A DNA stretch of 64,000 bases from contig JAUSCZ010000029.1 of the NCBI GenBank assembly GCA_030674475.1, forward strand, positions 2,357 to 66,356, read 5' to 3'. The DNA is from Candidatus Omnitrophota bacterium. Lineage in GTDB: Bacteria; Omnitrophota; Gorgyraeia; Gygaellales; UBA12090. This document shows positions 1 to 24,843 of this stretch, one piece after another. How positions within the stretch are numbered: position 1 is the stretch's first letter; each line of letters begins with the position of its first letter. The translations under genes were made by a program, and so were the position numbers. The notes under the pieces were generated by a model. The model was not told the origin of the DNA. It was given only the letters and a program-made list of their open reading frames with translations, and did not search any database.

Positions 1-92
1 TTTATGGATTATACGAGCAACTGGCCAATAAAAACTTAGATCCGTTATTCTCGATTATTCCGGCGGACGAGGTATTTGCTAACAAGTTTGCT

Positions 93-3000
93 ATGTTTGT
101 GGATAAGGGCTCAATATTACATGAGATGGACATGCTGAGCAAAGAAGAAATTAGATTCTTTGAGGAAGCTGTACAACATTTAGTAAATAGGCGTAAAAGA
201 GAAGAAAATGTATTTATTTTACATTCCTCCGCCTCACCGCTGATTCTTCTCGTGGAAAACGAAGAACATCTTAAGCAGAAGTATGAAGGTTGGCTGGAAT
301 GGCGGGCTCCGAAATCCGTGAGCAGCCCGCTAGGGGAAAATGATGAGAAAATGGGATGTGTTTCTATTTTTCAATTGAGATTAAGGAAGATGCTTGCGGC
401 TGTCGCGACAGGATGGTGGGAATTATTGAATTTTGTGATTTTAATATTAGCGTTGGATATAAGCGGTATATTTATATATTCAGAATTGAAATGTAAATTA
501 GATATGGAAGTAATACTAAGCCAGAGCCGCTTTTATTATAATGGGGATCTGGATGAATCAGCGGTGATAAGTAATTTGACTCCGCCAAGCTCGATACGTG
601 TTTTCCCCTTAGAAATACCGACCAAGGCAAACAGCATTCTATTAGAAAGGCTGCGCGCGGAAAAAAGCGCATTGGAGGAGCAGGCCAGGAAATTAAAGAA
701 TTCAGGAGAGTTTGCGGCAAGGGTGGTCAGAATTCATTCAGGGGCAGGTTGGGGAAGCGGTTTTGTGGTTGATGATATTGACGCTTATTATGTGCTTATA
801 CTTACCTATCATCAGTCATCCAGTCGTTGGATAGCGCTGGGGAACAAGTATAGATGTGAAAGGTATAGTATGGATGTATCATTCGGGAGTAATCTAAAAT
901 ATGAATATATCGGGAAGGCCAATGTTGTTATTGGGCGAGCACCCGAAAAGTACGGTCCTGTGGATAGGAATATGGATGTTGTTATAGCTGTTCTTAAAAC
1001 AGACAAGAAACTCAAACCCTTTAATATTATGGTGGGCCATAAAGGAATTCAGCCTGTGGTATTGGTGGGAGGGTTTAATGACTCTGTCTCGTGCGGGTAT
1101 TCTTTTCATGTGGATGAACAGATAAAAGCATTTGATATGAAGGTTAAAAGGGGAGATTCGGGAGCCCCATACCTAATTAATGAAGGTAATGAGTATCGTC
1201 CTATAGGTGTGAGTTGGTTCGGAGGTTATCTTCCTTCGGCAGCGTGTTTTACTTTGCAGATGAAAGAAGAAATGCTGGAAGCAATTAAGGAAAGACTGCA
1301 TGAAAACGGCAATGCGGGTGAAAATGATTGGCAGCGCAGGGTGATTTCTGAGTGGGCAGACAGATGCAAAAATTCATATTATCTTTACACCACTAATATT
1401 AACGAATTATCCGCGGTTCTTAAGTTTTTAGAAAAATGGGAGCTTTATAGCCGCGCAGAAAGCAGCAGCCCGCTGGGGAAAACCGCTCATCATAATAAGG
1501 GTGTCATTAGAAAATTAATAGAGCAGCAAAAAAATAGGGGTCAGACCTTGAAATGTGAAAATGTGGGATGCTTTTTTGGCTCTCCGGCGATGAGTGAAAA
1601 GGTAAGCCGCGTTGGCGCAGGCAGCCCCGTGGCGTCTTCTGTCCCGCAAACGGCGGACCAGGAAGGTAGAAAGTTGATGTCTTGCCCCGATTCTCTGGAG
1701 GATGCATTCTCACTGCCGGAAGATGTCTGGAAAAAGTATTGGTATCATGGTTCCGCAAGAACAATAGAATTATTAAAGAGTGTTTTGCCTGCAGGAAGGC
1801 GCGGCAAGATGCGAGAGAAAGAGTATCCCGTTAAGCCATTATTGGGGGGATTATATATGGATCCAAAGTCAAAAAAGATGCATTTTCTCCTCCCGCCGGG
1901 CGCGAAATATATTGACATGGGTGGATTGTTATCCGGAAAATCTAAAAAGGAACGCCGTAAGACGGTAGAAAAGTTAGAGGAAAAAGATAGAGCTTTAAAG
2001 AGACAATTAGCGGACGGTCAATTGGAACCCCTCTTTTGTGAGGCAGAAATCAATGGCATAGATGATGAGAATGGGGAAAATCCTCCTGGCATATATACGT
2101 TCGGAGATTTTCAGACGTATAGGAAGCGAGTAATTCCTTTGAAAAAAGTTAAATTTTCTAAAGAGAAAATGGATATTATTGCCGCTTATTTTAGGACGAT
2201 TGAAGGTGAACAGGAGAAGGTTCTGCTTAATGGCGGCACATTAGGATTGGGTGAAGATGTGGAACAGTTTTGTAAAGCAGTGTTTTCGATCGAAAAAGAT
2301 CCGCGCGTGTACCGGAGGGCGGCGACTATTGGGGTCATGCGATTCCTTCAGCGTTTGAAACAGAATCCCGATAATGTGCGTTTGGGAAGCGTTCCCGCGG
2401 TACTTGTTATAGATCCGCAAAAGCTACCCGATATAAAATTAGCTCCTGATAGAACCTATCGCGCCGGCGCATTTTTCCTGACCTACCCTGATGGACGTAT
2501 GGTTGAAGAATTGGGTTCCTCCGCATATAAAATTGTCAAACTTCAACCGGAAGAAGTGAACGATTTATTGTTAAAGTTTTCAGATAGGGTATCCAGATTT
2601 CAGGCATTATGGGAAAGATTAACTCAAACAGTAGAACAGTTCCTGAGTGATAGGGGTCAGACCTTGAAATGTGAAAAGCCAGGGGAAGCGCCGGCTTCCA
2701 GCCCCAAGGGAAAAGGGGACGGTTCTATTTATTTGAGCAGTCCTGTGGGGGGAAATGACTCTGCGCTCTTTTTCGCGTCTAAACAGAGCCTATTATCTTC
2801 TTCGCCGGTTATGTTTGACCCGCAAAAACCATTCAGCAGCCAATTGGGTATGTTGAAAATAATCTGGCAGGCGATTCATGAAAGGAATGAGAATAGGCTG
2901 ATGGCGTTACGGGAAGGGCTTTCGCGGCAGGGAATAAGGAGTTGGCTGATTGAGTATAAAGGTTATTTCCCTGACTGTTTTGAATATTATCCCGGAGCAG

Positions 3001-6000
3001 AAGACGATGTTACTAATGCTGAATCGATTACGAATCCATTCAAAAGTATCGAAATGGATAATGGCGGTCAAGCATTCGCATTGTGTGAAAAGATACGGGA
3101 GGCGGTCTTTTCTATCTCGCGAACATTAGACCAGGGGTATATTTCAGGCATGAATCTGGATGGTATTGTTGAATGCGCGCAACATCTTATTGATAATATT
3201 GAACAGCACGCCGCAGACGGTTACGGCATGATTATGGTTAAGTCAGTTGTTAACTCGCGTAAGAGAGTGGGCATTGAGCTTATACATTTGGACGATGGCA
3301 AGAACTTAGGGTGGTACACGCTTCCTGAAGAAACAAAAAAGTCTGTGACGAGAAAAGAAGGCCCGGGAGGGTACGGATTATTTAAATTTGCGGCCTTTAT
3401 GGATGAGATTGTTATTATATCAAAGCGTAAAGGTGAACCTGCAAAACGATGGGATAGCGCTAATCCGGAGAAAGAAAAAATAATTCGGAGTTTCATATGC
3501 CCGAGCGGGCGGATTACCATAGGTAAGAAGTGGAGTTCGGTTATTAAGCTGCGCCAGGATGGAGAAGAAAAAGATGCTTCAACTTTGGGCAGCAGCCCGC
3601 TGGGGCAAGACAGGAAAATAGAAGTGCCTCCATCTTCGCGGATTATTTTATGGATGCACCCATTATATTCAGAAAGAATATTCCGGGATGAATTAAGAAA
3701 ACATTCGGCAGATAATATAATGAGAAACAAAATAGAACAACTCATCTATAGATATAGTAAATTTCAAGAAGAAACCGCGCGAAATGTTGAAATTTTTGAT
3801 GGTATGAAATTGGTTATAGCGGATAATCATACTAAAAAAGCGGTAAATAATTTCTTGAAGGAGAGAAAAGTGAGTTGTAATTTGTTGACTACGAAATATG
3901 ATACTTTTGAACTGTCAGGATTGATGGGAGACGACTATATTTGTGGCTGGAAAGAACTTATAGATGTCTTAAAGACTTCGAATTATAGAAGTATTATTCT
4001 GGTTGGCGAATATTATGATGGATTGGGAGGATGTGTTGACGCGGAAAAGGCTATACTGGATAAGCATTTTATGGTTTCCGTTAAGAAAGACTTAACTTCT
4101 CCTTTTGGATTTTGTCAATTTGAAAAAACTATTGTTTCATCGCTTGAACCGGACAAGGTATCTTCTTTTCCTGTAGTATATCAGGAAAAAGCTATGGCCG
4201 TCTCTATTCCCGCGGGCAGTCCGTCTCGCCGACAGACAGGCAGCCCGCTTAATAAGAAACCAGAAAAGGCCAGAAACGACATAATTATCCTGCTACAGGC
4301 TTTAAGAAAACAGAATAAAGGCGGCATAGCTGATAGCGAGACAGAATTGCGGTTAAGGATATGGAAAGCAATACTTGATTTTTCCCGCGCTGGCAATGAA
4401 ATAAAGGTGGTGAATAATGAAGAATTATTGCGCAGAAGGGATAAAAAGATTAAAGAAGCAGGCCATATCCTTCTGGAAGGAGTTATTCCCCCAGGCGGAA
4501 TACTCAGAATGCTGGGAAGGAATCTCACCTTCCGGGGTTATAAAAATACACACTATCAGATGGAAATAAAAGAAGGAATCCCTTTAAGAATATTTTTCCT
4601 AAAAGACCATTCGGCTGTGCAGTTTTCTTTAGTCTGGAGCAAATCGAAGGGTAGGTATATTGACTTTTTTCTCCGCACTATCTTTATTAAGCAATTTAAC
4701 AAGCTTAATGAAGATAACAAAGTCCATTATTGCCATTTAGAAGGAACAGGATGGTTTCGCTTGGCAAGAAGGTACTGGATGAAATTTCCTGGTAGTTTCG
4801 GTTATGGGATTGCGGATGTTGTTGATATCCGTAATCCTTCCAAGAGGAAGGCTTTTGTCGCCGGCGCGGTAGCAGTAAATCAGAAAGGGCAAAGTTTTCC
4901 GAAAACACTCTCCTTTATTTATCAGATTCCCCGAAGAAGCACTGCAGAATCTTTTGAGAAAGGAGATTTGTATGATGTGTTTGATACTAAGGTGTATTCC
5001 GCGAAAATTAGAAGAAATTTGAGCTCGTATATTATCAGTGGACATAAGATAAAAGACGGCGGGGGAAAGGTGATAGCGGTATGCAATTATAGGAAGTATA
5101 TCGGATATTTCCCTTATGCTGAAATAGAAATTAAGAAAATAAAAGGAGAATTCCGTTTTATAAGGTTTGTTAAAAATAAGGATGGGCTCCCCATAGTGGA
5201 TAAAAGAAACAACAGCCTAATCATAGACCTTAGAGAAAATACAAAGAAGCAGATAAAAGAGAAGTGTAGTAATGAATTCGCAGAGCAAATCTTAGGGATA
5301 AAACGGACTGAGAATAAAATCGTTGAAGAAAATAAGGGAAAGGAAAAACAAAATATTCCCATAGGTGAGCGTTTTAGAAGCAGGAAACAAGAAATAAAAG
5401 ACAAAATTTCGGAGTATCTTAAAAATCATCCAAATGCGAAGTATCGGGAGATATCGCTTAACACAAAAATTCCGGAAACATTATTAATAAAGTATTTATT
5501 TTATTCTGACACGGAAAAATTAGAAAATGCAAAAGAAGAGTATCTCGATGAAGGCGAAAGTGAAGTAAAATCTTCCGGCAGCAGCCCGCTGGGCTTTGTT
5601 AAAACTGGGCCTTTGCGAATGGGAGGTTTATCAGTTACCTCTAAGGAAAGATATGAGGGGTTCCTTAAGCCTTCTGTTTTCAGCTCTGGGGTGGATGTGG
5701 TCTCAACTGATATAAATTCTGCCGCCGCTTCTTCATTAGAAGGAGACAAAGAAGTAGCATCATCCTCATTTCTCCCCATGGCATTAGTTGAGGGGGGAAT
5801 GAGCGAGGATAAATACAGGGCCTATAAGAAAGGGGCTGTTGAATTTTTGGAAAAGCATATCTTTATCGTTATGGCGGCAGGTATTGAAGTTTTCAAAAAC
5901 TACGATACTGGTTTGGAGACGGTTGAAGCCAGCAGCCCGCTGGATAAGGAGCATTGTTTTAATTATCCGGAGTTCAGGTTCCTGCGCGGGCACAGGAATG

Positions 6001-9000
6001 TAATGCGTATTTCCGATATTTATTTGCCGTTTGAGTTATTCGGCAGGGACGCGGACTCATGGTATTATCCTAGCCTGACGCGATTATTACACCAGAGCCT
6101 GGAGGATGTGTTGTGGGTTGAGGACTTTATCTTAAGATTCTACGGCAGTATAACCTATGATGTGGATGAGGAAGGCAAACCCAGATGGAATGATCTAAGC
6201 GATATCAACGCGACGATTTTACCCGGGGATAAATGGTTGATGGAGGGGGCCATAGATTTACAAAAAGACATAGTGAACAGGTTTGTGGAAATAGCTAAGG
6301 ATTCCAGGCTAAGCGCGGTTCTGCGCCCTTTGCCTGATCCGGACAGCTTGAGAGAGTTAATCAGCGACGACTTCCAATATCCCTGCCTTAAGTTAAATAA
6401 CGGCCGCTATCTGCCGGTTCGGATAGACATTTCTTATCCCTTGGATTCCCTGGTATGGCAGGAAAACCCTTCACAGGTGTATGATTTTTGGGGTTTTTAT
6501 CACGGGAATCAAAAGATGCTTAATACGCTTAATCAGCGGGTGAAGATAATTGAGGTCGGAGCATTGGCCGATCAGGAAGTCAGTCGTTACCAAAAAATAT
6601 TTGAAAGGGCGGTTTCATTTATCACTATAGATAAATTCCTTCCGGTTAAGTCTTTGAAGTTCCTGGCCCAGCTTGCCCGGATGCGGGATTTGACAGGCTT
6701 AAAAGAAGAATTGCTAGCCAAGGTGAGAGATATCTCAATCATAAAGCCTGAAGAGAAGGCTCAAAAGGCAGCCCGCGGGATTTTTTGGAAAAAATACAGT
6801 AGTCTGCTTATACCCCAAGACATCCGGCAGGTAAAGTATGATATTTACGGATGTATTCTGAAAAGGTCTTCTTCGGCTATGGAAGGTGCCGGCAGTCCGC
6901 GGGGGCAAAGCAGGAAAATAGAAGCGTCCCCATTTTCATCCGGCTATATAAAGGCCAGTTCATCTTTGGGGTCATTGATACCTCCGGAGGCAGAAGGCGG
7001 GAATATAAAAGGCAAGATATTGATAGTTGAAGATTCGAAGAATTTACGCGCTTCATTAAGAATGCGCCTTGAAAGTGAAGGATATGATGTTATGGAAGCC
7101 GGGGATGGGAAGGAGGCTTTAGAAAGGCTGGCCGATGAAAAGTTTGACCTTATTATTTCCGACTTTGATATGCCTGGCATGAATGGCATTGAACTTTTAG
7201 CCGAACTTAAGAAAAGGGGAATAACTACTCCTGTGATTATGCGCAGCACAGACGATATAAGGGAAAAGGCGTATGCCGCGGGCGCGAAGGAATTTATATC
7301 TAAACAGCGGCGCGCGAAGGATTTATCAGAAATTATAAATAAGATTTTAAAGGGTAAGGCAGGCAGCCCGCTGGGGGGAGAAAACGGTCGCAGTTCCTAT
7401 TTTGCCTATGCTAAAACTACCGCCGCCTCGCCGCTTATCATAGAAGCGGGCTATCAGATGGTAAAAGGTATGATAAGAGAAGGTGTTTTAAAAGACGGTT
7501 TAAAAATGATTATGGATAGCGAAAGCATGAATAGCATTGCTATTCTCTGGCAAAAAGGTTTTAGAAATAGGTTAACTAATAGGTTAATTGAACATTTTGG
7601 AATTAGGTTATATGCAGTCTACCTTAATCAAGAATTTGCCCAATCTCAAAACCAAAATGTTCAGGAGAGGATGTTCACTAAGGAGGCATTTCAATATTTA
7701 AACGATAGATATAAACAGCGTTTTGAAAGAGTAGTTGTGGTAAGCGAGGATGCGGTAAACTCAACGAAGAGCCATGAAATACTCCATGATGTTTACCATT
7801 TCTTACTGAAGGAAGATAAAAATACTTTAGATTCTTTGGTGGAGAGTATAGCTGCTCATTTTGGGAACGACGTACGGTATTTAGTTGCTTTTAAAGATAT
7901 TTCAAAATACCTTGGTGAATTTCACTATTACTATAATTCTTCTCGTGAAAGACAACAGTTCGTTTATGAGATGCTTTCTGAATTTATTAGTTATTTTTTC
8001 TCAGGAATGTTTTTAGAAATAACGGATAAGCGTTTGATAGAAAAATATTACTACCTACGCGATACTACTCCTGAGGAAGTAAAAAATATATTTGTTGAGC
8101 TTGGTTTTATCTGGCCTTCGGCCATTAATCCCGTTTACGCCGCCTCACCGCTGATTCTTCTCGTGGAAAACGAAGAACATCTTAGGCAGAAGTATAAAGG
8201 TTGGCTGGAATGGCGGGCTCCGATATCCGTGAGCAGCCCGCTGGATGATAATGAACCTATAGATGAAGTGGGGATAAAATCGGACAGCGCGAATAACCCC
8301 AGGATTTCGGCGTTTCATCGGCCAGACTACCCTTCCCTTTTTAAAGCGGATACACAGAAGAGATATTATAGTCTTCTGCGTAAGGCATTGAGTAGTTTAT
8401 TAGATGGGGGATACATTAAATATGAAAATATTGAAGCGCTTTCTTGTGATTTTTATCAGAGAAATCACATAACGAATATTCGCGATCACTTTTGGCCTCC
8501 AGAGAAGAAAGGTAGATTTGCGTTACCGGAAGGCGCTCGTTTAACGGTATTCATCCCTTATTATTTTGGATTTATCAGACCGGAAGATTTTGAAGCTTGG
8601 TGCCGCAGGGATGTGGTCATTTTTATCAAGGCACCGGATGAGATGGTTGAGGAATTAAAAGGATATCGCGCGGAATTTGAAAGAAAATTACCGGAAAGAA
8701 TAGATGAGGACAATGTTTTGATTGAAGGTATGAAAATAAGAAACCTCTATCTATCCGAGAAAAGCCTTGGCAGATTGTTCCTTCTTGTTGATCAGCGGGT
8801 TCAAGAGGCATATGATTTGCTGTATAGCTATGTCTATATGCTGGCTAAAACTTATATCTGGCGCAACCCCGCCTTACAAAACCCCGGGGCAAGAGATGAA
8901 GTATTAGTATCGGTTATGGATATGTTAGACCGCAAAATTAAAAAAGGTAATTTGATTCAAGAGGGAGAAGCTAAGGTTAATAAAGTTATCTTGAATGACA

Positions 9001-12000: not shown

Positions 12001-15000
12001 TAAGACCCGGCTCCATCCTTAAGATGCCGGGCAGCCTGCCCACAGTAACCAATGTAGGTATTAATGATGCAATAGCTGAATTTTTAGCCAATAAATTTAA
12101 TCCCCGCTTTGCCTATGATACTTATTCCAGATTCCTTGAATCTTACGGAGAAGGTGTCTATGGTATTTCCCGCGAGCGATTCACTCATCTTTGGGAAATT
12201 TATGCTTATGAGTCAGGCGTAAGTGATAGAAGCAAGATGAACGTCCGGCAGTTAAAAATACTTTGTGATAGATTCAAGAATCTTATTGTCGGGGAGCTGG
12301 AAATAATGGGGCAGGACAGCGGCGTTCTGGAGAGAGACTTAGCCAATCCTTTAGACCAGCTAAGGAAAGCGCTCAAGGCTGTCTTAAACTCATGGGAAAG
12401 AGAAGACGCGGTTACCTATCGCGCCTGCCACGGCATATCAAATAATTTTTACGCTTCCATTACCGTTCAGGCAATGGTTAATGGAAACTTAGACGCCGAA
12501 TCCGGGGCCGGGGTATTGATTTACCGGAGTGTTGAAGGCAGGATTATTATAACCGGAGAATATAGTTCCAACGCGCAGGGGCCGGACATCGCCGACGGCC
12601 TGATAAGGCCGGGTAAGATACATACGCTTAAAGAAAAAAATCCCCGCGCCTATAACCGGCTGTTAGAGGAAGCCGGGAAATTATCCGCGTGTTACTTTGT
12701 TGACCCTGAAATAGAGTTTACCGTCTCGGGTCAGGGGCAATTATGGTTTTTGCAGGTCAGCAGAGAGGCGCACAGAAAAAGAATTACCTGGAAGAAGCTA
12801 TCAGTGGAAGGACATAAACCGGCCGGCAGGGGAATAGGCGTCTATGGCGGAGGATTGCGCGGAAAAGTAATATTTGACGCCTTAGATATAACATCAATGA
12901 ATGAGGCCGCCCGGAAAGAAGGATTAGACGGGGCGATTATGGTGATGAATTATCCCCTGCCTTCGGATACGGGCTTGATTACCGGAAAGGGCCTTAAGGC
13001 TTTGCTTACCGCCAAAGGCGGTATCGGTTCCCACGGGGCAAGTATTGCCCGGGGCGACGGGATATACGCGATATTAGGCATTGATGAGTTGTTTTTTGAT
13101 GTTATGGCGGGGAAATGGTATCTGGGCGATAAGGAATTAAATAAAGGCGACATCTTAAGCCTGGATGCCCGGGCTGAGAGAGGCTATGTGTATCGGGGAT
13201 TAATTCCCTACGCGTCTGTTTCCTCCGCGATGGTGTATCCTGACGCGCGTGAGGTTATTAAGATAGGAATGACATCTTCGGCGATTTTCTCAAGGCGGGA
13301 AAATAGGCTGGCGCTCAATTTCAACGCGGGTTTGAAAAATACTAAAACCGGCAGCCCGCTGGAGGGAGAGGCTTCTTCTTTAGGCGGTTCGCTGAATCGT
13401 TGGGGGCGCGTTATTTATGAGAAACTATTTTATCCTTCAGACAATAAGGAAGGACAGCAAAGGTTCCGGACAATAGATGATGTTAAAAAGTCGCAAGAGG
13501 AAGACTCGCGGTGGTTAGAATTAAGTATTAAAACGTTGACAGAAGAAAACAGAGAAAAAATTTCAAAGCTATTGCCGGTGATGCGCGAGATTGATTCACT
13601 TGAGAAGGATTTAATCGGGCTTTCGGATGTTCAACTAAAAGCAAAAACAAATGAATTTAAGGCCCGGTTTAAGAATGGGGAAACTCTTGGCCAGCTTCTC
13701 CCTGAAGCTTTCGCGGTGGTCAGGGAGGCGTTCTTGAGGTTAAGCGGAAAGCGGATTTACAGCGTGCAAATGCTTGGGGGGATTGTCATTCATCAGAAAA
13801 AGGTCGCGGAAATTAAAACCGGCGAAGGCAAGACTTTTGTGGCCATGCTTCCGGCTTATTTAAGGGTATTGAGCGGACAAAAAGTCCATATTATTACCCA
13901 TAACCAATATTTGAGCACCAGGGATTTTAAGAAAACCGAATCTCTCTATCAATTCCTGGGAGTAACGGTAAATCTTAGGATTGATAGCCGCAAAAGGAAA
14001 ATCTTAAGTAAAATCTATGAGGCGGAGATCCTGTTTACCACAATAGAAACGGGATTTGATTTAATGAATGGAATTATTCCGTCGTCTCTACTGGCCGGCG
14101 CCTTTGCCATTATTGACGAAGCGGATTATTCCTTAATTGATTTAAATAACAATTCCTTAGTTCTTGTGCGAAAAAAAGGCGACAGCAAAGAATATTTTAA
14201 AGTTATTAAGAAGATATCCGCGAAAATGGAGCAGGGGTCGCATTATAAAATAGAATCAAAGTATCAGGTCTTGTTGACAGAAGCCGGCGTAAAATTTGTT
14301 AATGAATTTTTAGAAAGATTGAATTATCCATGGCTGAAAGGATATGAAGCCCAGACCAGGCTTTTAATTCAAATCTATCTGGCGACAGGTTTGCGTTATC
14401 AAAAAGGGATTGATTATTTGATCCATGGCGGCCAGGTTGTTCCTATTGACGAATTTACGGGGCGCCTTAAAGAAAGGCATCGGTTCGGATTGTATATTCA
14501 TCAACTTATTGAGCTAAGAGAGGGCATTAGGGTTGGGGGAGCTAAGCATGTTTTAACGTTGCCCGCGCCTGTGTTCTTTAATTATTATAAAGAGAAAGGA
14601 GGAATGACCGGCACGATTGATTTTCCCGTAGCGCGCCGTGAATTATCCAGGATTTACGGGATTTCCGACATTGTCGTTATCCCGACAAAATATCCCAGCC
14701 AGAGAATGGATTTACTCCCAAGAGTCTTTTTAGATGAGCGGAAACGAGATTCGAGCTTGGTGAGAAGAATTGAGGAATTGCGCGCGCAAGGAAACCCGGT
14801 TCTTTTGATCACCCAATCCGTGAATGAATCCGAAAGGTTAGAACGCTTATTGAAGGAACAGAAGCTCCCCTGCGAAATTCTTAATGCTGAAAATGAACGT
14901 GAAGAAAATAGAATAATCCACCAGGCAGGAGGCCAGGGGCAAATAACTATTTCAACTAATATGAGTGGCCGCGGAACAGATATTGTAATAGGTGAGCAGG

Positions 15001-18000
15001 TAGCAGAAAAAGGCGGCCTGGCGGTGCTGGTTACATTTAGGAGCGGCATAAGTCCGCGATTAGATTTTCAGGTGATGGGAAGGGCCGCAAGACAAGGTCA
15101 AAAAGGCAGCACGCAGTTTTTCCTTTATTTTGACCACTCGTTATATGGTTTTAAAAAAGCTGATTTCAAAATAAACGCGCAGGGGGATATAGATTTAGAG
15201 CGGCATCCCGATGTTTTGAGGCTTATTGACAATCAGCAAATGTCGGGGGAGGAAGCAATTTCTAAAAATCATCTTACGCAATTTATGCTGGATTATAGCC
15301 TTTATTTGCAAGAAAGATTTAATCACACATTTAAAAATTCGATTATGGATTTTTGTTATCGTTATATTCGTGAAAATGACAGGTTTTATAACGGTGTGTA
15401 TACCTCGGAGGTGTGGGACTCTTTAGAGTCCGCTTGGAGGGGTTTTCTTTATAGAAGACAGATATCTTTAACCTATCTTGATACTCTGATTTATACGAAT
15501 AAGATGTATAAAGAATTCAATGACCGAATGAGTAAGGATTTGGAAAAATCATTGTTTGAAGCAAAGCATATAAAGAAAATTCTGGCTAAAAAAGAGAAAA
15601 TAGATCAAGCATTGAAAAAGGCATGGAAAGAAACGACAGAACAATTTGTAAAGACTGAAGCTCGTATTCTAAAAGATATAGAATTGCCAGATAAGCCGCC
15701 GGATAAAATAAGATTAGAATATCGCTACCGAGAGGTTTCCAGTTCGCTGTGTCTCATCCGAGTATCAACACAAGGGGATTTGAAGCTAAATTCCGCCAGC
15801 CCGCTTGAGGAGGCGGGCCTGTCATTAGAAAAACATTCGGAAAATGGGGACGGTTCTATTTGTTTGAGCAGTCCGCTGGGAAAAGATAGAAAAACAGAAC
15901 CGTCCCGGTTTACGCGTTCACCTTTAGGCAGCAGTCCTCTGGCGGAAAGTGGAAAAAATATAATGGGAAGCTATTTTGATATTAAATTTAGGAATTCTGA
16001 AGAGTTTAGTACGGGGATACCTTTGTATGAAGGCTTTAGTTCCAGGATATCTTTGTCATTGCTTATAATGTGCGTTGCCTTTGCTTCTATAGCCATTTCT
16101 ATGATAAAGTTATCTTTTTTGTCTCTGCAAACATTAAGTTTAGTCCTGGGTTTTACTGCAATCGCCCTTAGCTTGATAACGGTTATTAATTCTTCAATAG
16201 TTAAAGGATCAACTTTTAATCTTTTCCTCTTGAAGACTTCCTTGATCTCTTCAATGAGCCTGTCAGAAATTATTAATGTGAATTTGCCTTCTTTAAAGGC
16301 ATGGTATATAGCTAAATTAGCGGGACTTTTAAGCAGGCAGGAGATGAAGATGTTGGTGTCAATGACCGCTTTTATATCGTGCATATACCTTTTTCCGGGA
16401 TATTTGGCATATCCTGTTTATTTCTTCCTCGGAGGGTATGCTTTTTATTTGGCCGCGTATATTATTTACCACATTATCCAGTCTTCTGGCCCAGGTAGTC
16501 TTTTCAAGCTTTCGCACCAATTGTATCTTTTTCTCAATAGGAAGTTTACCGATAAGCTTTTCTATATCAATAGTGGCAGTAATAGACATTTTATCTCCCT
16601 TTCTACTATAAAGCATACTATACTTTCAGTTATAAGTCAAGAATTTAGGGTGAAGCGCGGCACTTCTAACTTAACCGCTGCGGAAAAATGGGACGCTCAT
16701 ATTTTTGCCGGCAGCCCACTGGGGGAAAAGGAAAAAACGGCTGCTGCCCTTATTATTCAAATTATTTGCTCGGCATCCCCTGTATTTACATGTATCAGCG
16801 AAGGAAAGGAATATACTTATGGACAGCTTGTTGCCGGAACACTACTGGAAAATTATTTTAGTCATATTCACTGTTTGGGGGAGGAAAGCGGCTTTCCCCT
16901 TATTGTAGCTGACGGCCCTTCGGGAATAGGTAAAGGTATGTTGAAGCTTATGAAAGAATTTCTCGCGCGGTTACAGCTTGATATGTGTTATTGGCCTTTA
17001 GATATGTTTTTTATTGAGAGAGATAAACGTTACAAAATTATTAATGATGTGGTGGATGGTGTGATTCAAGGTGAAGATTATGATGAGGTGGGTTTTTGGA
17101 ATATGGCAGAAATTAAACGAGTCTTGAGCCGTAATAATGATTTCAAGAAATCAGGCAAGATGACAGAGAAGCTTTTTATACCAAAAGCATGGGATACAAT
17201 AAAGAAAGAATACCGGCCAAAAACAATAGTGTTAAAAAAGAAAAGCGTAGATGTTGTTGATTGGAAATATTCACATAAAGAAGAATTGCAAGCATATTAC
17301 GGTGATAATCCATTTCGTATACGTTTTATTGAAGATGAAGAAACGGTAAGAAAAAAGTATTATTCAAGAGAGCTTAAAACCCGCGGCCCGGGAAAAGATT
17401 TGGAAAGGCTTATGGCAGCTTACGATAAGTTGTTTGTGCCAAGTTATAAGCGGTATGTTCATCAATTAGGCGATAGATTTCCCATTTGTTTAGTAGATTT
17501 TTCTGATGATGAAGATTGCATTGCTTCTGACGGGTTCTCAAAGAAAGGGCGATCCCGGCCTTTTCAAGAAAAGGAGGCCGCTTTATATGCCGTCAACCCG
17601 ACCGTGGATGAGGCCGACAGCCCGGTGGGGGGAAATGATTCCGACTCATTTTCTAGTTCTCCAATGGATAGTAGCGATGATAGAGAAAAGATTAAAGAGG
17701 CAATCTCTGTGCTTAAATCAAGCAAAGGATACGGAATTCGCCTGGGGGCTTGTTTAAAAATTAAAGAAATAATAGAAAATAACCTATCTTTAGATGTGGA
17801 AGAATATTTTGATGACCTTTTAGGGCTTATGCTCGGCACAATAAGGGATAACGATGGTTCAAAGTCAACAGATGAAGTGTTTAGTGGCGTATGCGATATA
17901 ATTGGTTTATCTTTAAAAAGGAAAAAAAGCCTTGCCAATGAAGAGCGGATGGAAAAAATATTTAAGGTAGTTGATAATATAAGAGATTACGAATTTGGTT

Positions 18001-21000
18001 TTTCAAGGCTGTTAGGGCTTATCAGTAGTTTTATAATAAATAGTAAAATTTTTTCCGCAGAAACACAACAACCCGGAAAATCATTGGCCAAGCCGGTCTA
18101 TTATCAAAAAATCCTTACTATGGAATTTTCTTACGGACTAACGTTTACTCAATACGGCCTGACCAGGCTTGATATTTTTAACGCGGCAAATGAATTTATC
18201 CGTGCCAATCCTTTACTTGCTGAATATGAGGTTGATGCCCTGCGGCGAATTCTTCTTGATAGTGAATACTTTTTGAGCACGGCTATTGAAGATAGAGGTG
18301 TTATTGAACGCGCGTTACAAGCCACAATTGATATGACGTTAAAAATGATTGATTGTATCTCTGTAGTAATGTCATGTAACACTACATTCGTGAACAGGGA
18401 AATGATTGCGCCTATTCAATCTTTGCTCAGTAGCAGGCAGAAAATAATCAGGCTGTATGCCTTTAAAATAGTTCTGATTAATGCTGGCCAGTTAAATAAT
18501 CCACAGCTTTCTTTAGGAAAAATTATCCAAGAGACAGTTAAAAACCTGTCCGCGTATGGAATTAGCGTGGATAAAGCGATGTTCATTAAATTGTTAACCT
18601 TTATCTGGAGTCATCGTTTTGATGGTTTCAGTTTAGCTTCTTGGAGTATTTTATTGTCTTGTATATTAAAAAATGCTTCCCGGGAAAAGCAAGTTAAAGG
18701 ATTTTGGGGCGCTGTTCATAAATTCATAAACTGTTTTTCAAGAGAAGATACCAAAAATGTTTTAGCAGAGAATAAACATACGGATAATATTAATCGGATA
18801 GTCAGGATTTTGCGCTGGATAGACAAGCTTCATAAGCAATATCCTTCTATGGGCGCGGAAATACATTATTTTACAAAAGAAAGCGATATCTCCGAAAGAG
18901 AAAAAAACATATTCTTTGCCCAGTTCCTTGCGTTAACCCCAGGTCATAATTCTATACATCCTTATGAATATATTAAGGAAGCTGACTTTTTAGATATACG
19001 CGTTATGCCGGGGAGCTGGCCGGTTTTCTTTAGGCTGTGGAAAGAATTAAGTAGTTACGGTTTATTTGAACCCCTTAAGGATGATTATCCGCCGGCGGCG
19101 TATCACAGCTGTCTTAAGGGAGATTTTGGCCCGGATGTCCATAATTTTATTATCTCAAACACATTTTTAAATTGGCCTACTTTTTCTTCATTTGTCAGTA
19201 TCGACTACACTACAGGAAAAGACAGCGCGGAATTTGCTTTCGGGCAGGCCTATAATTATGTTGGCGTAACAATAAATGAATTGAGCGGCCTGATTGAATA
19301 TAGTTCTTCCCAGACCAATATTTTTGATTCATTTATAAAAACTTGTCATAAATTTAACGATACCCAAGGTAATCTTATTGGACAATATGATAGTTACCCG
19401 AGTTTTAACGATATTCCGAGAAAAGCTTTGTTGGCAATCGCCTTTTGCTCGCGAGACGAAAGATTGCAAAAAGTAAAAATAAAAGTTAAGGATATTATTT
19501 TTGATTGGCTGATTATGATAGGTATGCCCTTGGAATATATTGAAGGGTTACGTGATGAAGTATGGAGGGATGAGGGCGGAGGTATTACTACGACCCGTCC
19601 CCAATTAGCAAAGACATTAGAAAAAATAAAAGAAGTTATTGTCCTGCGGCAGGCCCAGCGGTATCTGGAAAGAGTGGACGATGATGCTAAGAAAGAATTG
19701 CAGGGATATATTAGCGTGAATGACATATTAGGGGCGGCGGGCATTCTGGATAAGATAAGACAAAGGGAGATTATCTATAAAGTTACCAGTTACACCCATC
19801 TTAATTTATGCGATCTCTCCGCGGAGGGCCTGAGAGGGGTGATTAACGAATTTAAGAAAAATCCCTTGAGCCCTGATTTAAAAGACTTAGAAAATAAAAT
19901 GGAAGCTGTCTTTAGGGAGATAAAAGGCATCATTTATACACCTTTAGAGGAAAAGATTATAGGATTATTTATTGATAACAGTTATCCTTTGGAGTCTGTC
20001 CCGGAGATTATTGACGATGTTCTGATAAAGGCTTTATCCGGCGGCACAAATGAAGAGGCAAAAACCCTTATAAACGAAATAGGCGGCCAGAAAGCTCAAG
20101 AAGCGCTTAAAGACATTAAAAAATCCTCCAGCCCGCTGGAGGAGGAGGAACTGCGCGAATTGCTCTCCGGCATTATCAGCTGTATAAACAACCCCTCACA
20201 AGCAGGATTAACCGGTTCCGTGGATAGTCTTTGTGAGTTTCTGCTGAAGCTGCCGTTGGGTGCTCTTAGAGAAAACCGTTTTTATAATTGTCTTCTTCAA
20301 GCCTTAAAGGGCGCGGTAAGCAAAACAGATTTAGGCGCTTTAAAGAATGATATATTAAAGCTGATTAATAACGCGATAGCGGTAAAGCTTAAATCTCTTC
20401 CCAGCGATTCAAACGAATATCAGCGCTATACGGAGACGCTTTTTTATCTGACTCTGCCGTATGTCAAAAAGGCGCTCAAGATGGGACAGATAAGGCTTTC
20501 GGATGATTTATTGGGAGAATTTTATCCCATCCTGTTATTATCTATTGACGGTTATGATGAGAGGAAAGGGGGAAATTTTCCCGCGTATTATAGTGATAGA
20601 CTTAAGAACGACGTGAACCAGCGAAGATTCGATACTTTTGCTTACGCGCGAGGTTCAGGAGAGGAGTATAGCGGAGAAGAATCTTGTTTTGAAACAGCCG
20701 CCGCTGAAAAAGCCAATAAAGAATACGTAAGCGCCGCGCGCGAAGAAGGAGCGGTTTGGGCTGCTAGCAAAAAAGAGATTGACGGCATAACGGATGAATT
20801 GTGGGAACAAATTAAGGGAGGAATAAAAGTTGTCTTGGCTTTAGGGGAAGAAAGAGTATCTCGTTTTGACAGCGGGTTATTAGAAAATTATTATAAACGG
20901 ATAAATGAATTTCGTGATGAAAATAAGATATTGCGCTGGAAAAAGCTAACGGAAGAATACCCGGGTTTGAGAGGTTTATATCGCGTTAAAGACCATTTTA

Positions 21001-22244
21001 TCAGGCCGCTGTATACTTTACTTATCCTATGGACGGCTTATATGGACGGGATTGCTAAAAGCCAGAGGGCGACCGCCAAAAGATTAGGCCTGTCAAGCCG
21101 GATGATAAATATCTATCTGAATAGGGATATCCGGCCTTTGTTGATGAGTAAGATAGCGGATATAGATATCAATTCTGCCAATAAGCAATTGAGGGATAAG
21201 AACAAAGAGAAAAGAAGCGGATTACAGATAATCAAGGATTATATCAACGGTAAATCCAGAAGTATTAATTTACCGTTGATTGGTGGCGCGCCCAGGAGCG
21301 GCATATCATTCTGCGGCCTGCGCGTGTATTTACCTGTATCTATAATCAAAACAAACAAAAAGTTTGAGGCTGTTATAAGAAGGCGCGCAAGAAAAAAACA
21401 TGGAAAACGGGTTTTTGTGATTACTCTTTACGCTGCCGGTTCTAAAAAGGAAAAGCTGGGCCATTGTCTTTGTCGTAATGTCAAAGGGAAATTAATGAGT
21501 TTAAACGCAAAGAGGTATGTAAATTTGACTCTAGACATAGAGAGAACAACAAAAGAGATATACATAAATTTCTTCATAAAGCTTAGAAAGAGAATAATTT
21601 CAATGCCTCCGGTTGAAGCTATGGAAGCGCGAACCTATAAAACGGGCAGCTTTTATTTGAAGGGGTTAGGTTTTGTCTCTTTGAATCTATCGCGTCATAA
21701 TTACAACTTTGCTATTATTGGCGTTAATGAAACATCCGTCATCGCTGAATTTGACAGCTTAGATCGTCCAGGCCATAAGGAATGGAAGATGTTTTCCGGC
21801 AGAGGTATGGATAAAAGTGTTGCTTGCCGGTGGGGCATAGCCGTGATAGAGGAGAGAATGAACGCGTTAATGTTTTATCCTAATAATAACAAACAGCAGG
21901 CGATATCTTTTACCTTAACCCCGGCCTACCGAAAGTCGCGTGAATTGAAAAAAGAAATCAGCCCGCCTGCTCGCCTCGCGGCCCTCGGCTTCGCCGAGAG
22001 GCGAGCGAAGCCGAGGGCCGGCGAGGCAGGCAGCCCGCTTATTGTCCGGGGTGTGGGTTGTTGCGTGCGCACGGGGGTTAGTACGGAAGAAAAATGCGGT
22101 TGGGGTAACTTTATGGAAGTTGAGGATTTTAGGGCTGGAATGATTTATCCGGCAGTAGACAAAAGCTATAAGAATATTTTTGGGCCAAAAGCAGCAGTAT
22201 TATTTTCTCATTCTACGCGGGTATTCTGCCGCGGGCCGCCATGA
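93..22244 (+). CDS. Giant multidomain ORF (at least 7383 aa; 5' partial, frame open back to window position 3). It is a chimera-like string of protease, receiver, sigma-r4-like, PanB, PEP-utilising, SecA-like and P-loop domains joined by repeated SPLG-encoding GC-rich linkers. It may be a polyprotein, a repeat-mediated gene fusion, or an assembly artefact.
   Basis: The ORF track gives one uninterrupted frame of 22152 nt. Checked by hand, frame 0 has no stop from nt 3 to 93, so the ORF continues upstream of the window. Domain motifs read directly from the translation are GDSGAP, KILIVED...[24 protein letters not shown], GEGKT...IIDEAD...GMTGT and VGDSL...VKIEGG...[15 protein letters not shown]. 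Other genes in the window end with TAA, TAG and TGA, so the standard code applies. A stop-free stretch of this length cannot arise by chance in roughly 42% GC DNA. Confidence 0.5.
   Translation: [7383 protein letters not shown]
229..334 (+). repeat. Copy 1 of a 106-bp near-identical direct repeat encoding [34 protein letters not shown]. Its 3' end carries the SPLG core.
   Basis: ccgcctcaccgctgattcttctcgtggaaaacgaagaacatcttaagcagaagtatgaaggttggctggaatggcgggctccgaaatccgtgagcagcccgctagg. It recurs at 8140-8245 with about 6 mismatches. Confidence 0.85.
712..1245 (+). other. Trypsin-like (S1/chymotrypsin-fold) serine protease domain inside the giant ORF. A predicted N-terminal transmembrane helix lies at about 390-470.
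   Basis: The motifs occur in His-Asp-Ser order: GSGFVV...ILTYHQ (His region), [10 protein letters not shown] (Asp region), then RGDSGAPYL (catalytic Ser motif, nt about 1153-1170) and IGVSWFGG. The preceding hydrophobic stretch is [31 protein letters not shown]. Confidence 0.55.
2715..2752 (+). repeat. GC-rich linker repeat, subfamily C ([13 protein letters not shown]).
   Basis: ggggacggttctatttatttgagcagtcctgtgggggg pairs with 15846-15882. The adjacent motif ggggggaaatgactc also recurs at about 17631-17650, and ggggtcagaccttgaaatgtgaaaa recurs at 1536-1562 and 2652-2678. Confidence 0.65.
3588..3640 (+). repeat. GC-rich linker repeat, subfamily B (SPLG + [11 protein letters not shown]).
   Basis: ggcagcagcccgctggggcaagacaggaaaatagaagtgcctccatcttc is paralogous to 6891-6945. 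Confidence 0.7.
6891..6945 (+). repeat. GC-rich linker repeat, subfamily B, second copy (SPRG + [12 protein letters not shown]).
   Basis: ggcagtccgcgggggcaaagcaggaaaatagaagcgtccccattttcatc. Confidence 0.7.
7014..7310 (+). other. CheY-like response-regulator receiver domain inside the giant ORF. It has no adjacent output domain.
   Basis: [67 protein letters not shown]...TPVIM...GAKEFISK. The acidic pocket, the phospho-accepting Asp in ISDFDMPG, and the conserved Thr and Lys positions are all present. Confidence 0.75.
8140..8245 (+). repeat. Copy 2 of the 106-bp direct repeat, 7.9 kb downstream of copy 1, in the same frame and orientation.
   Basis: Direct comparison with 229-334. Differences are aggcag/aagcag, tataaa/tatgaa, gatatc/gaaatc and ctggat/ctaggg. 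Confidence 0.85.
9261..9420 (+). other. Sigma-70 region-4-like helix-turn-helix inside the giant ORF.
   Basis: [50 protein letters not shown] resembles the sigma-70 r4 consensus (L..RER.V...RFGL......TL.E.G..FGVTRERIRQIE.KALRKLR). I did not recognise regions 2 or 3, so confidence is low. Confidence 0.3.
9540..10340 (+). other. Full-length PanB (3-methyl-2-oxobutanoate hydroxymethyltransferase) homolog embedded in the giant ORF. It starts with its own Met directly after an SPLGAG linker.
   Basis: [47 protein letters not shown]...VKIEGG...[10 protein letters not shown]...[14 protein letters not shown]...[24 protein letters not shown]...[14 protein letters not shown] aligns along its whole length with E. 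coli PanB (TAYDY...VGDSLGMT...VKIEGG...CGHLGLTPQS...LEAAGAQLLVLECVP...[24 protein letters not shown]...ESGVYPGEEHSF). Confidence 0.75.
11680..13212 (+). other. N-terminal ATP-grasp and phosphohistidine domains of a PEP-utilising enzyme (pyruvate phosphate dikinase / PEP synthase-like). The C-terminal PEP-binding TIM barrel is not apparent.
   Basis: [26 protein letters not shown] matches the PPDK N-terminal GGKGANLAEM...P.GF motif. [20 protein letters not shown] (about 13005-13060) matches the mobile phosphohistidine domain motif (GGxTSHAAIIAR.G.P). Confidence 0.6.
13556..15140 (+). other. Divergent SecA-like preprotein-translocase ATPase motor inside the giant ORF, comprising NBD1, the preprotein cross-linking domain and NBD2. 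Helical-scaffold-like sequence continues to about 15700.
   Basis: [37 protein letters not shown]...[54 protein letters not shown]...[11 protein letters not shown]...[28 protein letters not shown]...GMTGT...[11 protein letters not shown]...[14 protein letters not shown] is collinear with the canonical SecA N-terminus and both RecA-like domains. Several motifs are degenerate (IIDEAD in place of DEVD-IL), which suggests a paralogue. Confidence 0.65.
15846..15882 (+). repeat. GC-rich linker repeat, subfamily C, second copy ([13 protein letters not shown]). It sits in a cluster of three SPL cores at 15790-15935.
   Basis: ggggacggttctatttgtttgagcagtccgctgggaa. Confidence 0.65.
15971..16384 (-). 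CDS. PIN-domain protein, VapC-like putative toxin of a toxin-antitoxin pair (137 aa). It lies antisense inside the giant ORF frame.
   Basis: MHDIKAVIDTNIFISCLL...LIISDRLIEEIKEVF...DKKDNFIIEMAIEAKATHIISNDKDI shows the canonical PIN acidic residues (D-T-N..., E, D, NDKD). It is an intact 137-aa ORF preceded by a small overlapping ORF. Confidence 0.8.
   Translation of the reverse strand: MHDIKAVIDTNIFISCLLKSPANLAIYHAFKEGKFTLIISDRLIEEIKEVFKRKRLKVDPLTIEELITVIKLRAIAVKPRTKLNVCRDKKDNFIIEMAIEAKATHIISNDKDILELKPSYKGIPVLNSSEFLNLISK
16359..16616 (-). CDS. Putative cognate antitoxin (85 aa, or 75 aa from the second Met). It overlaps the PIN gene by 26 nt.
   Basis: A small upstream ORF overlapping the toxin gene is the typical type II toxin-antitoxin layout. 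I did not recognise a specific fold. Confidence 0.45.
   Translation of the reverse strand: MLYSRKGDKMSITATIDIEKLIGKLPIEKKIQLVRKLEKTTWARRLDNVVNNIRGQIKSIPSEEEINRICQISRKKVYARYKSGH
21962..22040 (+). repeat. GC-rich imperfect palindrome (about 26-bp arms) fused to the last SPL core, located near the 3' end of the giant ORF.
   Basis: gcctgctcgcctcgcggccctcggcttcg / cgaagccgagggccggcgaggcaggc are reverse complements with a few mismatches. A shuffled half-copy occurs in-frame in the outer-membrane gene at 33884-33910. Confidence 0.7.
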
Positions 22245-22304
22245 GCCATCCGGGATAAGTTTTTTATAGCTAACTTGTTTATTCATAAAAAGTTACGATT
22301 TTAA

Positions 22305-22332
22305 TTGAAAAGTATAAAATAAATGGTAAAAT
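22305..22332 (+). promoter_or_regulatory. Sigma-70-like promoter upstream of the first PilZ gene (TTGAAA, 16-nt spacer, TAAAAT).
   Basis: The spacing and hexamers match the consensus, and a GGGGGAGG RBS follows. Confidence 0.4.
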
Positions 22333-22353
22333 AACAAATTAATGGGGGAGGTG

Positions 22354-22725
22354 ATGGAAATGGAAAGATTGTTTGAGCGCCGGGTATTTGAGAGGATTAA
22401 CGCGGATTTCAGCGGATGGTACGCGTTAAAAGATGAGGGCGGCCAGATTCAGGGTGAGTTCTGGGGGCTTGATTTTAGCGGAAGCGGAGTCAGGGTCCAT
22501 TCTGTTAAAGAGATTGCTGAAGATAAAGTTTTAGAGGTGAGTATAACCTCATCAACCCTAAGTCAGCCGATACAGGAAACAGCCCGGGTGGCCTGGCAAA
22601 GGAGGATTGAGCCTGGTTTGTGGCAGGCAGGATTAAAGTTTTACCAGCCCAGGCTGATGCATTTTTGGCCGCTGGTAGAGTTAAAACAACACGAGATAGG
22701 GCAGTCAGGCGAAAGCGCGGGTTAA
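22354..22725 (+). CDS. PilZ-domain protein (c-di-GMP-binding family).
   Basis: The N-terminal RRVFER..., DFSGSGVRV and a type-1 PilZ beta-barrel-like remainder. The start is placed after the GGGGGAGG RBS; the ORF track starts at 22342. Confidence 0.55.
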   Translation: MEMERLFERRVFERINADFSGWYALKDEGGQIQGEFWGLDFSGSGVRVHSVKEIAEDKVLEVSITSSTLSQPIQETARVAWQRRIEPGLWQAGLKFYQPRLMHFWPLVELKQHEIGQSGESAG

Positions 22726-22791
22726 TGACCAACACCCAAACAAATGCTTTACGCTTACGATCTTGAATTTTAACACGAGAGGGGGTGCCAG

Positions 22792-23178
22792 ATGAGAATT
22801 GAAGAAAACAGAAAGTTCGCGCGTTGGAATATCAGTCGTCCGGTGCGCTTTAGCCTGGCGGGTAAAGATAATGAGGAGGAGAAAATGGCCCTGCTTAAGG
22901 ATATCAGCTTCGCCGGGGCCCGGATGTCTCTCTTTGAAAGCCTGCGCCTGAATGATAAGCTGGATATGTTTTTGGAGATTCCGGATGAAGAACACGCCAT
23001 ACACTGCGAAGGAAAAGTAGTGTGGCAAAAGTCGCTTGAGGATATGAGTTCTCCACCATTCGCCTGCGGTTTGTCTTTTACCAGGATAAAAGACCAGGAT
23101 AAAGAAAAAATGTTTAAATATATGAGTCAGAACGCCACCGATGAAGTAAAGAAGAAATGGTGGGAAGGGGTAAAATAA
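22792..23178 (+). CDS. PilZ-domain protein, a second paralogue.
   Basis: RKFARW...DISFAGARMSL matches the RxxxR...D.S.GG PilZ signature. A GAGAGGGGG RBS precedes the ATG. Confidence 0.6.
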   Translation: MRIEENRKFARWNISRPVRFSLAGKDNEEEKMALLKDISFAGARMSLFESLRLNDKLDMFLEIPDEEHAIHCEGKVVWQKSLEDMSSPPFACGLSFTRIKDQDKEKMFKYMSQNATDEVKKKWWEGVK

Positions 23179-24829: not shown

Positions 24830-24843
24830 AATAACGAACACCG

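Follow-up and report, generated by a model that had tools for sequence, protein, structure and literature searches.

A giant modular gene of an Omnitrophota bacterium with an embedded Spl/V8-like protease and a conserved peptide at its module borders: a candidate cellular polyprotein

Giant open reading frames (ORFs) are a known feature of Omnitrophota (Seymour et al. 2023, PMC10066038), and a class of 'multi-enzyme metabolic clusters' has been defined in a 2026 preprint (bioRxiv 10.64898/2026.06.07.730766). West-Roberts et al. (2023, bioRxiv 10.1101/2023.11.21.568195) reported divergent SecA domains, transmembrane (TM) segments and carbohydrate import neighbours, and speculated on cleavage by C39 or S8 peptidases, an analysis that was blocked by missing cleavage-point information. 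The working mode of giant genes, common in this phylum, is poorly understood, and published analyses ask whether the encoded proteins stay whole or are cleaved. Here we describe a giant gene that lies at the 5' end of a 64,000-nucleotide stretch of a Candidatus Omnitrophota bacterium (the window; GenBank assembly GCA_030674475.1, contig JAUSCZ010000029.1, positions 2,357 to 66,356). The gene is a smaller example of the described multi-enzyme giant genes, with which it shares the phylum, one very long ORF, many unrelated Pfam families and no dominant repeat, as well as receiver domains, a divergent SecA DEAD-like domain, TM segments, carbohydrate import neighbours and poor conservation. Unlike the surveyed genes it encodes only ~8,000 amino acids (aa), under the 10,000-aa cut-off of the 2026 survey (Seymour et al. 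used ORFs >20 kb), and it carries an S1B-like protease instead of a C39 or S8 peptidase.

The arrangement also recalls the viral polyproteins that are processed by picornavirus 3C, calicivirus 3C-like/NS6, potyvirus NIa or the astrovirus serine protease, in that one ORF holds an embedded PA-clan protease and a short conserved site stands at the borders of independently folding units. However, this is a cellular, chromosomal gene whose modules are of housekeeping type rather than replication proteins, and cleavage is here proposed from the sequence; its protease has a serine nucleophile with a classical H-D-S triad, and full-length similarity to bacterial S1B enzymes and not to the viral ones. 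Comparative genomics from the Aravind laboratory has further described polyvalent proteins of phages and conjugative elements, which are very large and multi-domain and contain embedded peptidases proposed to autoprocess them. Polyvalent proteins and polymorphic toxins (PMC3482391 for the toxins) resemble our gene as large multi-domain proteins with module replacement by cassette recombination, but they belong to mobile elements or toxin delivery and carry conflict domains, whereas the modules here are metabolic or regulatory and the context is chromosomal. The closest relatives of the protease itself are the Spl/V8 enzymes of Staphylococcus aureus (MEROPS S1B), which provide its best profile and fold matches and share the small two-barrel domain and H-D-S triad. 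They differ in sequence (~15-19% identity) and in setting, being free and secreted, whereas the window domain is embedded behind a TM segment and a long helix.

We propose that the giant gene is translated as one chain of many unrelated modules and that the linkers at the module borders carry a candidate processing site, [S/A/G]-S-P-[L/V/I], in this genome usually SSPLG. Read as P4-P1, this motif would be cut after its aliphatic L/V/I residue, and cutting would release the modules as separate proteins. The embedded Spl/V8-like protease would be the prime candidate for the cutting enzyme, and the conserved junction codons would also allow in-frame shuffling of modules. We give this combined reading, a processed polyprotein with the embedded protease as prime candidate and junction codons that are also shuffling sites, a probability of roughly 0.45. 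As to its parts, we see an even chance that the sites are cleaved at all, and it is doubtful that the embedded enzyme does the cutting; cleavage, its place in the motif and the enzyme are plausible deductions from the conserved border peptide. The wider idea that Omnitrophota follow a cellular polyprotein strategy, a kind of protein-level operon in which enzymes and regulators of ordinary kinds, dozens of them, form a single chain, an embedded protease cuts S-S-P-[L/V/I] and the junction codons double as recombination sites for cassette-like shuffling, is put forward tentatively and may well prove wrong.

Counted from its first ATG, the ORF has 7,383 codons on the + strand (93..22244; stop at 22242-22244). 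Inspection of the frame showed it to be stop-free back to window base 3, so that the ORF runs off the 5' edge and the gene begins outside the window. In a close relative (L012; GCA_003451255.1, contig DMEX01000101.1), which has 97% nucleotide identity across window 1-407 and is 86-94% identical in three further window segments by blastn, the start ATG precedes window base 1 by ~1.83 kb. With at least 7,413 codons in the window and ~610 upstream by this comparison, the full gene would have ~8,000 codons (roughly 24 kb), which places it above 20 kb and below 10,000 aa. The initial annotation had given the gene as 712-22040, which is too small in view of the open frame and the upstream ATG; its single giant ORF with a modular, polyprotein-like anatomy is borne out by the unbroken frame and the several unrelated Pfam families.

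It might be argued that this is not one gene but an operon under an alternative code, an assembly chimera or a decaying pseudogene array. A search of a word-indexed database of 5.8 billion proteins with the first 2,270 aa gave no match, and many modules lack a Pfam family, as such an origin might predict. However, 22 kb are free of stops in a genome of 42% guanine-cytosine (GC) content, table 11 yields normal reading frames for the 28 neighbouring genes, and many other Omnitrophota assemblies contain comparable giant frames without interruption. Those domains that can be recognised are complete and score strongly, there is no Rfam match, and a Logan contig (L001) that is independent of the window assembly is 100% identical to window 19182-26760 (7.6 kb), which speaks against an artefact of assembly. 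We regard the whole family of such explanations as highly improbable. An assembly artefact is rejected on the strength of the Logan contig, and an alternative code or misread operon on that of the normal neighbours and of an ORF that is stop-free under any code; the window is chromosomal DNA, correctly read with table 11.

The gene joins about 18 autonomous, unrelated protein modules (Table 1). The most readily recognised are a CheY-like receiver, a full-length ketopantoate hydroxymethyltransferase (PanB) with 40-48% identity to free-standing PanB proteins, a PPDK-like region, and a divergent SecA-like ATPase composed of SecA_DEAD, preprotein cross-linking (SecA_PP_bind) and P-loop_SecA parts. 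About 10 modules have no Pfam match, and Pfam at lenient thresholds on 15 separate segments gave weak matches only (HATPase_c_2, Sigma70_r4). The PanB-PPDK module had no match when genomes and metagenomes were scanned, and self-BLAST of the window ORF found no internal paralogous modules.

Judged by sequence and model, the embedded domain has the chymotrypsin fold of a serine protease, probably one of S1B type, with the staphylococcal Spl/V8 proteases as its nearest relatives, and catalysis is predicted. An exhaustive HMMER search with aa 82-458 gave a family of 15 relatives, in whose alignment His240, Asp295, Gly354-Asp-Ser356-Gly and Pro359 are invariant. The family profile matched 2as9 and SplD in the PDB at E ~1e-6 over profile positions 13-207, nearly the whole domain, and more weakly resembled calicivirus 3C-like proteases around the GDSG region; the window copy alone reached E ~0.3 with phmmer against the PDB. 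A profile search with the protease alignment A1 in the word-indexed database gave 2 matches. The window protease reaches no Pfam model, trypsin models included, and one relative (L009) matches Pfam Trypsin_2 at 33.1 bits (cutoff 27.6). An AlphaFold (AF2) model built from the family alignment has a predicted local distance difference test score (pLDDT) of 80.8 and a predicted template modelling score of 0.82. Searched with Foldseek against the PDB, it gave 564 matches at E <= 0.001, topped by V8, SplE/F/A, HtrA and chymotrypsin. Fold and family profile thus confirm the trypsin-like protease with GDSGAP that had been noted near the 5' end. A missing His or Asp had been named in advance as a sign of an incompetent enzyme; the triad is intact, with all three residues invariant in the 15 members, in a chymotrypsin-fold model.

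The form of the junction peptide is consistent with recognition by such an enzyme. Recognition by S1 proteases depends mainly on the non-primed side, so that a block of four residues has the form expected for a P4-P1 site. Spl enzymes read several subsites: SplD recognises R-(Y/W)-(P/L)-(T/L/I/V)|S, accepting Pro or Leu at P2 and Thr, Leu, Ile or Val at P1 (PMC3793935), and SplF takes Leu or Met at P1 (PMC7926377). With Pro at P2 and an aliphatic P1, S-S-P-[LIV] bears a resemblance to these narrow-specificity SplD/SplF sites.

In the window ORF [S/A/G]-S-P-[L/V/I] occurs 23 times, against a mean of 0.98 (max 5) in 2,000 shuffles, and the remaining 28 window ORFs (11,997 aa) have 0 copies. No site falls within any Pfam or protease domain, an outcome with a probability of 0.007 in the window ORF and 0.004 in that of another Omnitrophota locus (L004). 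The CheY receiver is bracketed on both sides by sites within ~40 residues; PanB begins 11 residues downstream of one site, and ~60 residues separate another from the start of the SecA-like module. The original observation that SPLG recurs at unit borders holds up, with 9 copies, the first six spaced 381-719 aa apart. A second observation, that a Met soon follows the motif, is correct for PanB and the protease module; as a general feature it fails, as 8 of 83 sites in five ORFs have such a Met against a background of 15.6%. Purine-rich GGGG/GGAGG is often found 3' of the motif in the window genome. An internal ribosome-binding site with a Met restart at each junction was considered and rejected, given that Met is not enriched and that other lineages do not have the DNA pattern.

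The same peptide marks giant ORFs elsewhere in the phylum. Loci of the relatives were found in public genomes by protease search, partly with the subset alignment A2. No 4-mer is more over-represented than SSP[LVI] in L002 (GCA_043802125.1, an Omnitrophota metagenome-assembled genome; 19 sites in 3,780 aa) and in L004 (31 in 6,775 aa), and it is among the most over-represented in L005 (8 in 6,865 aa) and L010 (14 in 6,871 aa), where ~0.1 per 4-mer is expected in each giant ORF. Further sites are present in L019 (14 in 4,505 aa, where it again leads the enriched 4-mers), P0015 (6 in 2,767 aa) and P0011 (2), and none in the flanking open frames of L002 (3,868 aa) and L019 (2,591 aa). All 31 sites of L004 lie outside its seven recognised domains. 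Taken over 83 sites, conservation is confined to the four residues S-S-P-[L/I/V] (L 32, I 29, V 22), apart from a preference for small residues just before (S/A/V/T/G) and just after (A/G/S/T). Junction nucleotides are heterogeneous in L004, L005 and L010 while the peptide is kept: 25 of 32 junction 9-mers are distinct in L004 and 17 of 19 in L010, and serine is encoded by AGY as well as by TCN codons, which points to selection on the amino acids. It is the peptide, not the codons, that is conserved in seven giant ORFs of different Omnitrophota lineages sharing the protease family. The giant ORFs of the window and of L002 have only the protease and CheY modules in common, each at ~27% identity. 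Within the L002 giant ORF a methyltransferase-like module is duplicated (nt 292-985 and 6910-7615; P0007 aa 79-308 and 2285-2518), and both copies run from an ASSPVGVG junction to the next SSPL junction, which indicates that whole modules duplicate as units.

Close relatives show that the junctions are also places where modules are exchanged. In L012 a block of modules present in the window is absent, an in-frame difference of 6.76 kb between two junction copies: the end of the protease module is joined straight to the start of the sigma-like module, and the switch occurs within the 13-nt AGCAGCCCGCTGG. In a second relative (L022; ENA ERZ1286166) the 3.8-kb PanB-PPDK module is 84% identical to that of the window, with a different order, the SecA-like module standing upstream, not downstream, of PanB-PPDK. 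The limits of the L022 alignment coincide with junction motifs or come within ~35 nt of them, and the last ~80 nt of its PPDK-like module are duplicated, together with the junction, before another module. Module gain, loss and in-frame reordering at junctions are thus seen directly between close relatives. In the L022 contig_3503 (record 25424-46293) the giant gene is called as ~15 genes, with a frame that shifts repeatedly, probably through long-read indel errors; giant ORFs would be under-counted in assemblies of this type. Junction flanks are also repeated inside the window (repeat families D4-D9). The PanB start SPLGAG-MSLEKGK (9519-9560) has a degenerate copy, SPLEEAG-LSLEKHS (15795-15835), with ATG changed to CTG, an indication that a junction and the opening codons of its module are copied together.

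This raises the question of whether the motif is primarily a DNA signal or scar, a microhomology or recombination site for in-frame shuffling, with the peptide a mere passenger. Several observations speak for a DNA role. With up to one mismatch, GCAGCCCGCTGG occurs 13 times where 0.18 copies are expected, all on the + strand, in the ORF and in one frame, which gives near-identical copies of 12-13 nt. Codon identity is far above codon bias, AGC-CCG-CTG being used at 9 of 19 S-P-L sites where codon usage predicts a probability of 0.016 (P = 5e-12). To these are added the breakpoints at the motif in L012 and L022, the duplicated junction flanks, a 28-nt direct repeat around one module and a hairpin at one junction. 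However, the DNA version AGCCCGCTGG was found only in the window's closest relatives L001, L012 and L022, and L002 prefers GCC-TCC-TCG-CCG-(C/G)TG, with TCG-CCG where the window has AGC-CCG. A pure DNA signal would not persist in this way, nor would it account for the peptide kept through the mixed nucleotides of L004, L005 and L010. We consider a passenger peptide distinctly improbable; the DNA role is probably real and added to a peptide function rather than replacing it. Shuffling at the junctions may be a selected function or a by-product of short repeats. An integron-like cassette array was rejected, as the junctions, inspected by eye, do not have the attC R''/R' core (RYYYAAC / GTTRRRY) and the modules are stop-free in one frame.

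A number of observations weigh against processing by the embedded protease, and some of them would suit a giant protein that is never cut. When the protease was modelled by AF2 with its own C-terminal junction, the SSPLG tail came out disordered (pLDDT <50) directly after a confident helix and showed no docking in the active site; the junction after this module probably lies in a disordered segment, which fits a flexible linker and in itself counts in favour of a processing site. Stand-alone homologues of the protease (P0004, P0006, P0008) start with what by eye looks like a signal peptide, and in the window a TM segment whose N-terminal flank carries Arg and Lys precedes the protease, so the protease may be extracytoplasmic. 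It may then face outwards, whereas the CheY, PanB, PPDK and SecA-type modules are of cytoplasmic types. No motif stands between PanB and the PPDK-like region. SSP[LVI] is likewise absent from the protease-bearing multi-enzyme giant ORFs L006, L007, L009/L018 and P0003, which represent three or four lineages, against seven protease-bearing giant ORFs that have it, and a search for an alternative junction motif in L006, L007 and L009 gave only two or three weak, unconvincing repeats. Moreover, the motif-rich ORFs were all found by protease search, which biases the co-occurrence of protease and motif, and within the window genome the nucleotide identity of the junctions could partly reflect concerted evolution rather than selection on the peptide. 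As to the absent motif, the faint repeats are FSLSG in L009 and HLFSS[PA] in L007; the giant ORFs of L006, L007, L009 and L018 encode PHP, EamA, GNAT, PRK, HD, pseudouridine synthase, Rce1-like and sigma-70 r4 domains.

If the giant protein stays whole, SSP[LVI] would be a hinge or docking motif in a membrane-anchored multi-enzyme scaffold and the protease would act on other substrates, such as prey or cell-surface proteins. The secreted appearance of the stand-alone homologues, the TM segment, the undocked tail and the protease-bearing ORFs that lack the motif would all agree with this, as would the published view that ties giant proteins to prey attachment and cell-wall degradation (PMC10066038). 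A linker, however, would hardly need a strict four-residue peptide that is retained through codon switches and placed at essentially every border in seven ORFs, and it is hard to imagine how sigma-like, CheY and PanB modules would function as tethered parts of a membrane protein of 8,000 aa. We therefore hold an uncut scaffold to be unlikely, if by no means negligible. A different possibility is that the sites are processed by another protease, encoded elsewhere in the genome or supplied by a prey or host cell, and that the embedded S1 enzyme has another job. The loose coupling of motif and protease and the topology just described are in line with this, and in other giant proteins of Omnitrophota the peptidases are of the C39 or S8 families instead. 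Yet all motif-rich giant ORFs examined contain the protease family, though sampling was protease-first, and the motif agrees in style with the specificity of Spl-type relatives (PMC3793935); an outside enzyme is in our judgement improbable. Returning to the processed polyprotein, the self-processing first suggested for this gene keeps its footing in the single ORF, the intact triad and the border motif, and loses it in the Met argument, in the protease-bearing ORFs where the motif is absent, in the undocked tail and in the doubtful topology. The DNA-level conservation of the junctions and their part as breakpoints did not figure in that first suggestion.

Table 1. Features of the giant gene, in window coordinates (5' to 3')
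Feature	Position	Strand	Evidence or remark
Giant ORF	3..22244	+	5' end open at window edge; first ATG at 93
120-nt leader unit, copy 1 (ASPL-ILLVENEEHLKQKYEGWLEWRAPKSV-SSPL)	224..343	+	Motif at each end; 93% identical to 8135-8254
Junction SSPL(G)	321..332	+	Before TM and protease module
In-frame remnant like the terminal hairpin arm of the IS200-like element	343..381	+	Right after first SSPLG junction; blastn 16/16, 24/27 nt; weak
TM segment before protease	390..494 (aa 100-134)	+	Kyte-Doolittle scan
Chymotrypsin-fold (PA clan, S1B-like) serine protease (predicted)	705..1292	+	Alignment, profile, AF2 model
Catalytic triad codons (predicted)	His240 810-812; Asp295 975-977; Ser356 1158-1160	+	
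GDSGAP (aa 354-359)	1152-1169	+	
Junction SSPL(G)	1464..1475	+	End of protease module; left breakpoint of L012 6.76-kb indel
Modules 3-10 block absent in L012	1477..8231	+	6.76-kb in-frame indel between two junction copies; blastn, three-way alignment
Module 3, Pfam-less	1534..1561 (start) and 2650..2677 (end)	+	Flanked by perfect 28-nt direct repeat at these positions
Junction cluster SSPK / SSPV(G) / SSPV	2697..2810	+	Left arm of junction hairpin at 2711-2730
Junction SSPL(G)	3591..3602	+	
Junction GSPL	4239..4250	+	
Junction SSPL(G)	5580..5591	+	
Junction SSPL(D)	5931..5942	+	
Degenerate junction GSPR(G)	6891..6902	+	Before CheY module
CheY-like response-regulator receiver	7017..7337 (aa 2309-2415)	+	Pfam PF00072, E = 2.9e-26
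Junction GSPL(G)	7362..7373	+	Directly after CheY module
120-nt leader unit, copy 2	8135..8254	+	Ends in SSPL(D) 8232-8243 = right breakpoint of L012 indel
Sigma-70 region-4-like helix-turn-helix, weak	9258..9401, in module 8247-9518	+	PF04545, E = 0.0039, below curated cutoff
Junction GSPL(G)	9519..9530	+	Before PanB; L022 alignment begins just after
PanB, full length	9552..10319 (aa 3154-3409)	+	Pfam PF02548, E = 1.8e-54
PPDK / phosphoenolpyruvate-utilising-like region (PPDK_N + mobile domain)	11727..13172 (aa 3879-4360)	+	PF01326 6.3e-15, PF00391 1.5e-7
Junction GSPL(E)	13350..13361	+	PPDK-like / SecA-like border; L022 alignment ends here
Divergent SecA-like ATPase	13536..14999 (aa 4482-4969)	+	PF07517 1.5e-63, PF21090 3.1e-36, PF01043 2.6e-13
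Junction cluster ASPL / SSPL(G) / RSPL(G) / SSPL	15795..15941	+	
Stable hairpin, junction motif in loop	15842..15911	+	Inverted repeat I22; RNA fold 15832-15920 -30.8 kcal/mol, z = -3.9
Polytopic membrane module, hydrophobic aa 5315-5370 and 5420-5439	16035..16502	+	Hydropathy scan
Junction GSPL(G)	16710..16721	+	
Junction pair DSPV(G) / SSPM	17616..17666	+	
Junction SSPL(E)	20127..20138	+	
Last junction GSPL	22029..22040	+	67 codons before stop

Lone arms of the junction hairpin repeat are found next to other junctions at 2711-2730 and 6916-6937, the latter with 95% complementarity to 15840-15861, and the hairpin could be what is left of a palindromic element, or else a structure of the RNA. 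An RNA-level processing element was rejected, since there is no Rfam match and a strong hairpin stands at one junction only. Elsewhere in the window an insertion sequence (IS) of the IS200-like type occupies 46896-47672, with its Y1 transposase ORF at 46986-47672 (Pfam Y1_Tnp, 5.2e-17); a perfect 19-nt hairpin precedes the transposase (46896-46957), and its arm is repeated near the 3' end (47651-47672). The 38-nt remnant in the giant gene, which resembles the right arm and its flank, is carried by L012 too, where the copy is 90% identical to window 46920-46957.

The remaining 28 window ORFs are ordinary bacterial genes on the same strand, among them those for a sugar ABC transporter, GH2-like proteins, ROK, LacI, ribonucleotide reductase with an intein, MnmG, a two-component system and Pst. 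The intein lies inside the ribonucleotide reductase large subunit (42006-45536) and has a LAGLIDADG homing endonuclease domain (Pfam Intein_splicing, LAGLIDADG_3). Window 1-64000 has 30 ORFs of 200 aa or more, and only one of them is not on the + strand; GC skew stays positive from end to end and cumulative skew rises monotonically. The window is probably on the leading strand, far from origin and terminus. Two small PilZ-domain genes (22360-22725 and 22792-23178) directly follow the giant ORF. Gene order in L002 is the same as in the window: giant ORF, two PilZ genes (at 11427-12189), solute-binding protein and two permeases of the sugar ABC transporter, and a GH2-like protein. The kept PilZ neighbourhood hints at regulation linked to cyclic di-GMP.

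In the two giant-gene preprints and in Seymour et al. no mention was found of a junction motif, a polyprotein, a cleavage point or junction-mediated shuffling, and a full-text literature search for Omnitrophota together with polyprotein gave no match. The S1B-like embedded protease family of these giant genes, the S-S-P-[L/V/I] junction peptide common to several lineages and the junction as an in-frame recombination breakpoint all appear not to have been described before.

The junction peptide makes it directly testable whether and where giant proteins are cut, and offers candidate cut points at which they may be split into units that can be modelled and annotated. Frame-preserving recombination at the junctions also offers an explanation for the poor conservation of giant genes. 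If cleavage is confirmed, a cellular organism would here express proteins of housekeeping type as a virus-style polyprotein, which would be a rare case.

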